From a phage, in sequence record PZ674595.1: a stretch of DNA of 64,000 nucleotides; one strand, given 5' to 3'. Each line of letters begins with the position of its first letter. Position 1 is the stretch's first letter. This document shows, in pieces, positions 8,389 through 11,300 of the stretch. Made by a program: the position numbers.

Positions 8389-11300
8389 TAATAGCGGAAA
8401 CGGAATGGGGAAACTCATTCCGTTTTTGTTTATCGCCTTAGACGGCAAAAGTGCTGTCGCCCACCTGCGCTTGCGCATACCAGGCCATAAGCTCCGTGGT
8501 TCCTGGTTCTCCTTCCGCTGGAGCCCAGTGCGCATAGTCATCGGCAGCCACGGGTTGATAGCCACCGTGTTTTACTTCAAAAATTATGCCACCGGTATCC
8601 AGCGACAGCACGGCATGCCAGGTTCCTGCGGCCATCTCCAGCACCGTACAGGTTTCCCCCAATATCGCCCGATGGGTGACGGTACCCCGATCGTCAAAAT
8701 TCAGCACCACGAAACGACCCCTTAATGGCAACAGTAGCTCGAAGGTGTGAGGGTGTCGGTGCGGGCGCACGTAGGTCCCAGGTACAAGTGCAAACGAAGA
8801 AGTCTATCTGGCAGTAGCCTAATAAGCCAAACACCAGCGAGGTCAGTTTCCAGCCTCGTTACCGAAATGGGACACACTGAGCGAGTGTGATTGCAGAACG
8901 CAGGAGGGAACATTCATGTTCCCTCCGATGAAGTAACAGAATGGGCGGTTGGTATATTTTCAACTCCATATGACTCCCGAATTCTTAGCCACTGACCGCC
9001 CATCCTGTTACGTCATTTTGTTCAATTATGTCGTTTATACTGGGTTAAAAAGCGGCGACGTAGCCCGGCTGGTATGGTTAGCCAGCACACAACGTTGAGG
9101 CCATTACATTTTTATCAATTCTAAGGTTCTATTCACAGAGATACCGGCGAGCATTGATATGTAACATGTTGGGCAAACATTCAATCGGAGTAGTGGCCTC
9201 AACGTTGTGAAGACGGGATTGTTGTGTAGGTTTAACCACTGTTGCCATTGGTACCTGTTTTCACAACAAATGATTCCATACATCACATTGTATAAATTAC
9301 AAAGTAGGTGCTGTCCTCAGAAACATCATCTACTTAAAGATTTTGCCTTCTACTATTGAGCGAAGTCGAAAGCGTCTGGCACTAACGAAAAGTGCAAGTA
9401 GCGGTGCGTTTCCTGGCAGAAACTAAACCGTCGCGATTGGCACTGTTGAGTAATAAATACTGGCAGTGCTGAATTGATGGTGTAGCTCAGCGGTAGAGCA
9501 GTTGGCTGTTAACCAACTGGTCGGTGGTTCGAATCCACCCACCATCGCCAATTTAGGGGAGTTAGTCCGTAGGGGCAGCGGGGTAGACTGTAAATCTACT
9601 GTCATTGCGACTCGGGTGGTTCGACTCCATCACTCCCCACCAAATTGCCGGTTTAGCTCAGTTGGTAGAGCGCCTGCCTTGTAAGCAGGATGTCAGCGGT
9701 TCGATCCCGTTAACCGGCACCAACACAACAGGTAAGAGCATTGGGCGAATCGGCGATACTGACCACAAGCCCGTAAATCGATAGAGTCAGACCAGTGCTC
9801 TTACCGTTGTGAGGAAGTGCAGCTCTTTGAAGCAACCAGAAGATAAGCATCTGGCTTCACAACACAACGATAAGATCATTACGGTTAATCGTCGTTCATG
9901 TGCACAATGACTGGTCGAAAGGTAGTGATCTTACCGTTGTGATGAATGCACAGGCTGATGTGCCGCAACTACAGTAGTGCGCGCTTTGCGGGGCTTGCTA
10001 CAACCCTGTGTCGGAGTTCAGCACCGACCATCACAATAGCTGGAGAGTAGGGAGCATGGTGCTCAAGCGGTCTTGAAATCCGTCCCATTGTGCAAACGAT
10101 GATGGTTCGATTCCATTACTCTCCGCCAGACACAGCGTTGAGCGGTTTGGCCTTTTAATCAACCAGATTAAGACTCCGCTAACATAAACCAGACCGCTCA
10201 ACGCTGTGATAGACAATTACGGCAGACGTTCTTAACCATAGCTTGCTAACATCCTAGCAACACTTTTTTCAGCGCAAAATTCAAAGGGGCTTCGGCCCCT
10301 TTTTTGTTGAACAGTGCAATTTACTTTGCATAGTCGCCCAATTTTAATATTTCGCGCTTATATTCATTAACCATGCTACTGGATTCAGTATAAATTCGAT
10401 TTAAAAGATTATCGTTATCTTTATTTTCATTTATCTTAATTAGTGCTAATTTATATTCATAGTCATCAAATGCCACAATTAAATGGTGGCCTGGGATTAT
10501 ATCTTCGTCACTCTTAAAGTATATATCTTCAAGTATGTAATCTAGTTGATTAGATTTTCTTTTCTCGATGTAATCTTCAGCCATAGCTATTACATCATTC
10601 CTGTCATTTAACCTGTTTTTTTCGGAAGGCACATCTTCGTAATGTTGCACGATTGAACAACCAATAAGGCGTGGGATGTAAACATCAAAATGAGTAACTC
10701 TATCATTCGCGGTTTTAAGTAGTTCCTCAAAGTAGTTTCTTACATGTAAAGGCAACTTCTCAAAGTAATCATTAATTATAGGAGAACAAGGAGTTTTATA
10801 ATTCATAAGAACCGACGGTACGAGCTTTGGGTGTCGAAACATCCAGTCCCTTTTAACGTCCGATGGAACATAATAACTTTTAATGATATTATCAAAATAA
10901 TTTATCATTCGAGATTTGAATATTTTGTTGAATCTAAGGTTTATGAATGTATCCAGATAAGGCATATTTGAATAAGCATCATCAAAAAATATTTCATCAT
11001 TGAAAAAATCATATTTATTCAATAAACAACACAGTTTTTCCGAATTAATATGTTCACAATAATCGATTTTTAATCCAAAGATAGCAATGATCAACTTCAT
11101 CTGAGGTGGGATTTTAAAAATTAATTGTGACACATACGCTCTTTTTTCCTTGAGACATTCCCCATCAATATAAAATGAACCATCCACATACTCAAATATA
11201 TTAATAATATGCTTCACATACTGTATTACCTCATGCTGTCTTACCAATGGGTAATATAGTCTATGTAACTCATCGCTGTTTAAATTAATTTTGTGTTTAT

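Follow-up and report, generated by a model that had tools for sequence, protein, structure and literature searches.

We analyzed a 64,000-nucleotide stretch of phage DNA from sequence record PZ674595.1 (hereafter, the window), which is part of a ~110-kb SSU5/Cyrano-like phage-plasmid of Escherichia coli, as judged from the gene content of an identical plasmid, and which carries a small array of tRNA genes. A preliminary description of this DNA had placed four tRNAs with encoded CCA ends at 9476-10128. ARAGORN, run over the whole 64 kb, found exactly four tRNAs at exactly these coordinates, all on the + strand: tRNA-Asn(GUU) (9476-9550; canonical cloverleaf, G73, encoded GCCA), tRNA-Tyr(GUA) (9556-9642; class II with a long variable arm, G1-C72, A73, encoded ACCA), tRNA-Thr(UGU) (9647-9722; canonical, with G1-C72, C2-G71, A73 and encoded ACCA) and tRNA-Ser(UGA) of the (8/4) type (10042-10128; G73, encoded GCCA). 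The first three were also reported by the general tRNA model of Rfam, RF00005, with bit scores of 75.5 (Asn), 73.1 (Thr) and 39.7 (Tyr), the gathering score being 29. The PGAP annotation of identical plasmids in RefSeq lists all four as tRNAs, without a pseudogene flag. The Asn and Thr genes show the features of canonical bacterial-type tRNAs, i.e., a 7/5 cloverleaf, a 7-nt anticodon loop and a discriminator followed by CCA. A U.U pair in Ser was the only mismatch, the other three tRNAs having none. The genes had been described as tandem, which holds for Asn-Tyr-Thr; Ser lies 319 nt past Thr, with two long hairpins between them. The 1.7 kb surrounding the tRNAs was 100% identical to a set of ~110-kb E. 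coli plasmids (e.g., NZ_CP104844.1) and, in parts, 95-97% identical to Escherichia phages CMS-2020a and Cyrano.

The Ser gene can be folded with an acceptor stem of 8 bp (G1-C72 to U7-A66, plus A8-U65), a T stem of 4 bp, a compact D arm (4-bp stem, 5-nt loop with GG) and a variable arm that consists of a 6-bp stem and a GCAA loop. With its position-8 pairing, long variable arm, G73 and serine anticodon, it has the features of the (8/4) tRNA-Ser class described by Mukai et al. (Nucleic Acids Res 2017), bacteriophages being among the sources of that class (PMC5389517). RF00005 did not report the gene at the gathering score, and the best-scoring Rfam model was that of selenocysteine tRNA (tRNA-Sec, RF01852), with 41.1 bits (gathering score 47; E = 2.4e-6 in the 1.7-kb search). 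Both the poor score with the general model and the better one with the Sec model are attributable to the 8/4 fold. We rejected a tRNA-Sec identity, because the anticodon is UGA and not UCA, the acceptor/T branch has 12 bp and not 13, and the score is below gathering. In the record of phage D6, the corresponding gene is noted as having an apparent UGA serine anticodon, its amino acid not being called by tRNAscan-SE.

A search for homologues of this tRNA-Ser retrieved 412 phage records and 340 plasmid records. Among the former are rV5-like, T4-like and T5-like phages infecting Escherichia and Klebsiella, together with Acinetobacter and Streptomyces phages. Genes from eight lineages had in common A8-G9 and a compact D arm (4-5 bp stem, 4-5 nt loop keeping GG), and their D-stem and variable-arm pairs varied in compensatory fashion. 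We also took 120 viral contigs with a class II tRNA carrying a UGA anticodon, and split the 55 distinct Ser(UGA) sequences by D-arm shape alone. In the compact-D set, 31 of 33 sequences have a pair between position 8 and the nucleotide that follows the T stem on its 3' side ('65') (A-U 18, G-C 7, U-A 4, C-G 1 and U.G 1), whereas in the 22 sequences with an ordinary D arm position 8 was paired in 8 and mismatched in 14 (Fisher p = 6e-6). Conversely, the canonical 49:65 pair was mismatched in 10 of the 33 compact-D sequences and paired in 21 of the 22 ordinary ones. In an alignment of 31 sequences (A1), the 8/4 model formed the 8:65 pair in all 31, with 12 double changes and 5 pair types, while the competing pair of the 7/5 model failed in 9; overall, 93.7% of cells were paired vs 74% in shuffles, and double changes were seen in 21 of 24 pairs. 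A1 omits two sequences that looked 7/5 on the very pairing under test (L022 and L085) and, by oversight, a third with G8-C65 (L012), so that the unbiased 8:65 count is 31/33 and not the 31/31 of A1.

The preliminary description had noted an imperfect anticodon stem in Ser, and the U31.U39 mismatch was confirmed. It results from a single A39U change, the standard pair being present in Cyrano, D6, the rV5-like phage phita32 and 27 other A1 sequences. The exact A39U allele was found in 33 of the 340 plasmid records, from E. coli and E. albertii, and the persistence of this lineage-specific change in plasmids of two Escherichia species shows that it is tolerated.

The same description had proposed that the Ser-like element is degenerate, i.e., a pseudo-tRNA or a tRNA-like RNA without a role in translation, an explanation that we consider improbable. 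It would fit with the scores below gathering in both Rfam models, the U.U mismatch, the unassigned amino acid of the D6 copy, and the finding by Mukai et al. that some allo-tRNAs were inactive when tested (PMC5389517). However, the scores are accounted for by the 8/4 fold, the relatives have a perfect anticodon stem, and every helix co-varies over 31 distinct sequences from many phage lineages, across which neither the 7-nt anticodon loop (CUUGAAA) nor the UGA anticodon varies; moreover, the element is enriched in UCA and UCU codons. The set of serine identity elements in E. coli consists of G1-C72, G2-C71, A3-U70, G73 and a long variable arm, and all of these can be read intact from the Ser sequence; serylation by SerRS and activity in translation are predicted. 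Altogether, the lead of a degenerate tRNA falls, and this gene appears to be a bona fide (8/4) tRNA-Ser, a proper member of a rare fold already described in phages. The numbers of records with homologues show that phages and phage-plasmids of Enterobacteriaceae commonly have this fold. Such genes are under-called by standard tRNA models and annotation.

The second gene of unusual shape is tRNA-Tyr, and the atypical register of its D arm, which had also been noted before, was confirmed. A 3-4 nt linker (UAG) follows the acceptor stem, the D stem is formed by UCCGU/GCGGG, nucleotide 26 is missing, and in the Rfam alignment the gene has a 2-nt insertion before the D stem. Homologues were found in 1539 phage records; because the same layout is conserved throughout the family, the shifted D arm is best read as a conserved idiosyncrasy and not as damage. 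The GUA anticodon, long variable arm, G1-C72, A73 and homology place the gene in the phage-type class II tRNA-Tyr family of T5 and BF23, with 85% identity to the T5/BF23 tRNA-Tyr and 72% to E. coli tyrU. Bacterial TyrRS requires G1-C72, A73 and a long variable arm, and this Tyr tRNA has all three. Many other viral tRNA-Tyr genes (in loci L013-L131) have a compact D arm, with a base other than U in position 8, and non-canonical folding may be frequent in phage class II tRNAs other than tRNA-Ser. A previous study showed that a T5-family tRNA-Tyr rescues phage from PtuAB, the effector of retron-Eco7, which depletes host tRNA-Tyr, and that for rescue the anticodon and stems must be intact and the promoter strong (PMC11555353).

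Comparison with other elements indicated that the array is shared and reshuffled. A common gene order was seen in P1 (Asn-Thr), D6 (Asn-Thr-Ser), Ro157c2YLVW (Asn-Tyr-Thr) and Cyrano (Asn-Thr-Ser), which fall in two unrelated phage-plasmid lineages. Identity between the window and Cyrano is 99% up to the end of Asn and 95% from 10027 onward; the intervening segment with Tyr, Thr and a hairpin is absent or diverged in Cyrano, which lacks the Tyr gene, and is matched by P1-like arrays at 81-95%. The individual genes are 98.7% (Asn) identical to the Cyrano copy and 89.5% to P1 trnA, and 96% (Thr) identical to P1 trnT and 80% to E. coli thrU. A recent capture from host tRNAs was ruled out by identities of just 72-80% to tyrU and thrU. 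Among viral contigs we found 24 array compositions of the type (Asn|Arg)-(Tyr)-Thr-(Ser)-(Met/Ile2 CAU). By these sequence comparisons, the array is a mosaic, combinatorial module common to P1-like and SSU5-like phage-plasmids, which documents the exchange of tRNA cassettes between two unrelated, clinically relevant, resistance-carrying families.

Mosaic structure of this kind might also be expected if the tRNAs were passive hitch-hikers, spread by recombination among co-resident phages and of little selective value. The content of the arrays is highly variable, two relatives (L139 and L153) have hairpins without tRNAs, and the mismatch allele of Ser is tolerated. Nevertheless, the genes are structurally intact over hundreds of plasmids from two unrelated phage-plasmid lineages, their changes are compensatory rather than those of decay, and there were no pseudogenised copies among the arrays examined, all of which makes passive carriage an unlikely explanation.

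The tRNA blocks are bracketed by a family of long hairpins, five of which were found, all on the + strand: H0 (8933-9011; 21-bp stem, 37-nt loop, ends GTAACAG...CTGTTAC; z = -5.9), A (9088-9209; 20-bp stem, 82-nt interior, ends CACAACGTTGAG...CTCAACGTTGTG; z = -7.2), B (9724-9811; ~20-bp stem with one bulged A, 1 nt after the CCA of tRNA-Thr; z = -5.7), C (9863-9941; 20-bp stem, 39-nt loop; z = -4.5) and D (10131-10208; 20-bp stem, 38-nt loop, 2 nt after the CCA of tRNA-Ser; z = -10.3), where the z-scores compare folding with that of shuffled controls. Stems are 20-23 bp and interiors 37-82 nt. The outer ends are shared (CACAAC.../...GTTGTG or TAACAG.../...CTGTTA), the inner stems are wholly different between copies yet still complementary, and a U.G at stem position 17 is common to A-D and absent from the h2 hairpin of P1. 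No further member of the family was found elsewhere in the 64 kb, and Rfam 15 covariance models gave no hairpin match in 9000-10700, only hits at chance level (E ~1); in D6, P1 and L026, only tRNAs reached the gathering score.

Hairpins of this family bracket the tRNA blocks in every relative examined. Orthologues of H0 lie upstream of the block in Cyrano, D6, P1, L026, L049 and L128, A is kept in Cyrano and L128, and D is kept after Ser in Cyrano, L049, L055 and L128. In these orthologues the arms are conserved and the interiors drift, some interiors containing a canonical T-arm hairpin (AGGG-TTCGAAT-CCCT in P1 and D6, GTAGAG-TTCGACT-CTCTAC in L026). A B-type arm was within 10 nt of a tRNA in 101 of 120 viral-contig matches, directly after Thr(UGU) in 98, and on the strand of the nearest tRNA in 113 of 113 cases; these matches are mostly near-identical P1-like copies, with 24 distinct sequences. 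A strict tie to tRNAs was rejected, because a single hairpin stands alone in L243, and the H0 and A hairpins have been kept in L139 (6306-6403) and L153 (1841-1933), two SSU5-like relatives whose hairpin region is ~79% identical to that of the window and which have no tRNA genes in the stretch examined. Chance matches inside open reading frames (ORFs) accounted for several other pattern hits lacking a tRNA.

We favor the view that the hairpins are RNA processing or stability elements, e.g., sites at which RNase P or RNase III would free tRNA 3' ends. By analogy with the PeSL stem-loop cassettes of T4-type phages, they could in addition serve as recombination joints. The fuller proposal, that they form an undescribed class of RNA 'punctuation' of phage tRNA operons, cut by RNase P or RNase III and doubling, as dispersed repeats, as recombination joints for the shuffling of tRNA cassettes between P1-like and SSU5-like phage-plasmids, we regard as tentative and rather doubtful. 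In either case, the family offers a tractable system for the processing and reshuffling of phage tRNA operons. Strand asymmetry was set aside as proof of action as RNA: stem counts of G.T vs A.C (35 vs 22) and the better folding z-score of the + strand in 4 of 5 hairpins are both weak differences. We also consider an integron-like attC/IntI system unlikely, because the nearby recombinase is a generic Phage_integrase without a match to any NCBIfam integron-integrase model; the P1-like carriers of these hairpins use Cre. The ends ACACAAC/GTTGTGA fit the attC core RYYYAAC/GTTRRRY at up to 6 of 7 positions, and hairpin D has AGC/GCT in place of AAC/GTT. The annotation of P1 (L004) places two ORFs, plp and upl, over the conserved hairpins h1 and h2, on the - strand (2575-3144) opposite the tRNAs. 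They may be over-annotation of a structured non-coding region, since neither the D6 record nor PGAP annotates ORFs in the homologous region. A separate long-hairpin family, with arms CCATATnnAAACACAyTG, was seen in five IMG/VR contigs that were retrieved via tRNA-Ser (L012, L015, L056, L080 and L101), three of 124-168 kb and two of 26-44 kb.

With respect to transcription, a strong intrinsic terminator on the + strand (10283-10310; GC-rich 8-bp stem followed by a T run) was the only terminator-like site in 8700-10500, and it likely marks the 3' end of the array transcript. A consensus scan for a promoter belonging to the array itself found none. Because this region contains one terminator after the array and no promoter-like site, the four tRNA genes probably form the tail of a longer + strand transcript.

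We next compared codon frequencies of the late (structural) genes of the element with those of non-ribosomal-protein genes in a K-12 sample, expressed per 1000 codons. The frequencies in late genes and in the sample were 20.7 and 8.6 for ACA, 20.2 and 8.8 for ACU, 15.7 and 8.7 for UCA, and 20.4 and 10.7 for UCU, respectively, i.e., an enrichment of 1.8-2.4-fold. Asn codons in total were enriched ~1.3-fold (51.9 vs 40.1). Over the whole element, ACA ranked 3rd, ACU 8th, UCA 9th and UCU 13th in enrichment among the 61 codons; its G+C content is 45.6%, vs 50.7% in the K-12 sample. A tRNA with U34 reads A- and G-ending codons, and usually U-ending ones too, and E. coli has a single gene each for tRNA-Thr(UGU) and tRNA-Ser(UGA). 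Since U34 decoding covers the enriched ACA/ACU and UCA/UCU codons, the codon statistics favor a role of Thr and Ser in codon supply. They support such a role weakly for Asn, and do not support it for Tyr. The same applies to the translation tailoring that had been suggested earlier.

An alternative is that the array is mainly an anti-defense device, in which the tRNAs replace host tRNAs lost to anticodon nucleases, retron effectors or colicins, codon supply being incidental. Colicin E5 targets both tRNA-Tyr and tRNA-Asn, whose codons are not enriched (Tyr) or little enriched (Asn). In addition, the homologous T5-family tRNA-Tyr counters retron-Eco7, Ser and Tyr, with folds unlike those of the host, could evade nucleases by which the shape of host tRNAs is recognized, and the alternation of Asn and Arg(UCU) in the first slot, together with the coming and going of Tyr and Ser, is as would be seen under shifting selection. 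However, Thr and Ser match the codon bias of the element well, no strong promoter is evident at the array, and we know of no nuclease against Thr(UGU) or Ser(UGA) in the host range. Furthermore, the published rescue was by overexpression and was also obtained with E. coli tRNA-Tyr from the strong phage promoter (PMC11555353), so that a resistant tRNA sequence was not required. For the array as a whole we therefore consider a mainly protective function possible but doubtful. PARIS was also considered, as a nuclease that would hit Asn and Thr tRNAs too, and was dropped, as no mention of these tRNAs was found in PMC11464382.

Altogether, we favor the reading, with a probability of roughly 0.8, that the array is a functional, co-transcribed and combinatorial tRNA module with a bona fide 8/4 Ser gene, exchanged among P1-like and SSU5-like phage-plasmids. 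Such a module would supply decoders for Asn, Tyr, Thr and Ser, charged by host synthetases. Thr(UGU) and Ser(UGA) would serve ACA/ACU and UCA/UCU, which are about twice as frequent in the element, especially in its late genes, as in E. coli. Tyr and largely Asn would most likely be a reserve that sustains translation once host tRNAs are depleted or cleaved, comparable to the tRNA-Tyr of T5 in the face of retron-Eco7. The gene calls, folds, covariation, homologies, codon statistics and mosaic structure were obtained from the sequences themselves, whereas we infer expression, aminoacylation and these physiological roles for all four genes. The division of roles is testable, with codon supply (Thr, Ser) and reserve or anti-defense function (Tyr) residing in one small array.

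Several observations weigh against this reading. The consensus scan of 8700-10500 yielded no sigma-70-like promoter, so the array's own promoter was not found, and a transposition unit with ISEcp1 and blaCTX-M-55 now sits just upstream. The K-12 reference for the codon comparison is one 50-kb sample. Tyr codons are not enriched and, at 23.8 vs 27.6 per 1000, are lower in late genes, and the most enriched codons (AGA, AAG, AUA, CGA and CUA) have no tRNA in the array. The U31.U39 mismatch is unique to the Ser gene of the window among the 31 aligned members and could weaken this copy. Finally, evasion of anticodon-loop nucleases via loop mutations is not indicated, because the Thr and Tyr tRNAs have the same anticodon loops as E. 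coli thrU and tyrU, and the loops of Asn and Ser probably match those of E. coli as well. Relatives carry Arg(UCU) and a CAU-anticodon tRNA in the corresponding slots, the latter annotated in P1 as an AUA-reading tRNA-Ile2.

The preliminary description had also linked the tRNAs to an element-borne metG located next to them. The gene is present, annotated at ~60159-62192 beside apbC, as on the chromosome, but it is ~50 kb from the tRNAs and not adjacent to them. ARAGORN called no tRNA-Met in the 64-kb window. The apbC-metG block (58902-62193) provides the element with a diverged second methionyl-tRNA synthetase gene. This host-like block shares ~90% identity with its chromosomal counterpart in all 5426 E. 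coli genomes, and it was also found at 223 places on plasmids. Similarly, glnS is carried by D6-like phage-plasmids, and it has been suggested that a synthetase gene on a plasmid can serve in plasmid maintenance (PMC6799933). Outside of the window, NZ_CP104844.1 (L135) contains genes for a GNAT acetyltransferase and a TacA-family antitoxin at 20466-21264. The toxin of such toxin-antitoxin pairs acts by acetylating aminoacyl-tRNAs. A tie between this pair and the tRNAs or metG of the element is speculative.

Upstream of the array, the ISEcp1-blaCTX-M-55-wbuC transposition unit occupies 6001 to ~8800, on the same (+) strand as the tRNAs; blaCTX-M-55 is frameshifted in the reference record. A 2025 preprint describes resistance-gene insertions near tRNA loci of SSU5-like phage-plasmids. 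On the other side, a gene for a 420-aa protein (10321-11583, - strand) is convergent with the array, and Cyrano carries other genes at this location. A role as a tRNA-related enzyme was rejected for this gene, whose single match was phrog_18168 (function unknown), with none in Pfam, NCBIfam or PADLOC. Elsewhere, at 21679-22097 on the - strand, a cspA-type thermoregulator (Rfam RF01766, 185.7 bits) is located upstream of a cspG-like cold-shock gene. On the identical plasmid, a replication and nucleotide-metabolism block encodes a DnaB-like helicase, primase, ligase, DnaE, gp32-like single-stranded DNA-binding protein, RecA, NrdAB and ThyA, plasmid functions include RepA and ParB, and the structural genes are of the siphovirus type.

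The closest known arrays are those of P1, with trnA (Asn) and trnT (Thr), and of D6 (Asn-Thr-Ser), whose genes are homologous to ours and likewise ordered, and whose arrays are flanked by the same hairpins. The P1 tRNAs are in the C1-repressed leader of the operon of ban, which encodes a DnaB-like helicase; here, they follow the block with the DnaB-like helicase, primase and ligase. The backbone is SSU5/Cyrano-like and siphovirus-type here, unlike that of the myovirus P1, and compared to P1 and D6 the array has an extra Tyr, no Ile2/Met(CAU) tRNA, and no tciABC beside it. The tRNA-Tyr of T5/BF23 studied by Azam et al. (2024; PMC11555353) is likewise class II with a GUA anticodon and is the gene to which ours is 85% identical. 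However, T5 tRNA-Tyr has a very strong dedicated promoter and is part of a large tRNA-rich region, whereas no promoter is evident here and a protective role is putative.

With respect to the hairpins, the PeSL cassettes of T4-type phages (PMC2839356, PMC4122927) are similar in that repeated stem-loops bracket variable cassettes, and these stem-loops were proposed to mediate modular shuffling. A PeSL, however, combines an early promoter with a terminator-type stem-loop, while the hairpins described here lack a promoter motif or T run, have 20-bp stems and interiors of 37-82 nt, and abut tRNA 3' ends.

The Ser gene resembles tRNA-Sec (RF01852) in its extended acceptor stem, compact D arm and long variable arm, and differs from it in having an anticodon UGA that reads UCA, in place of UCA reading UGA, and a 12-bp rather than a 13-bp acceptor/T branch. 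With the (8/4) tRNA-Ser of Mukai et al., it shares the 8-bp acceptor and 4-bp T stems, the compact Sec-like D arm, the long variable arm, G73, a serine anticodon, and its occurrence in phage tRNA clusters. The phage copies in that study were from metagenomic clusters of unidentified marine phages and from alphaproteobacterial phages (PMC5389517), whereas the present gene is from an E. coli phage-plasmid, has relatives in rV5-like, T4-like and T5-like coliphages and in Klebsiella phages, and adds the U31.U39 pair to the features of the class.

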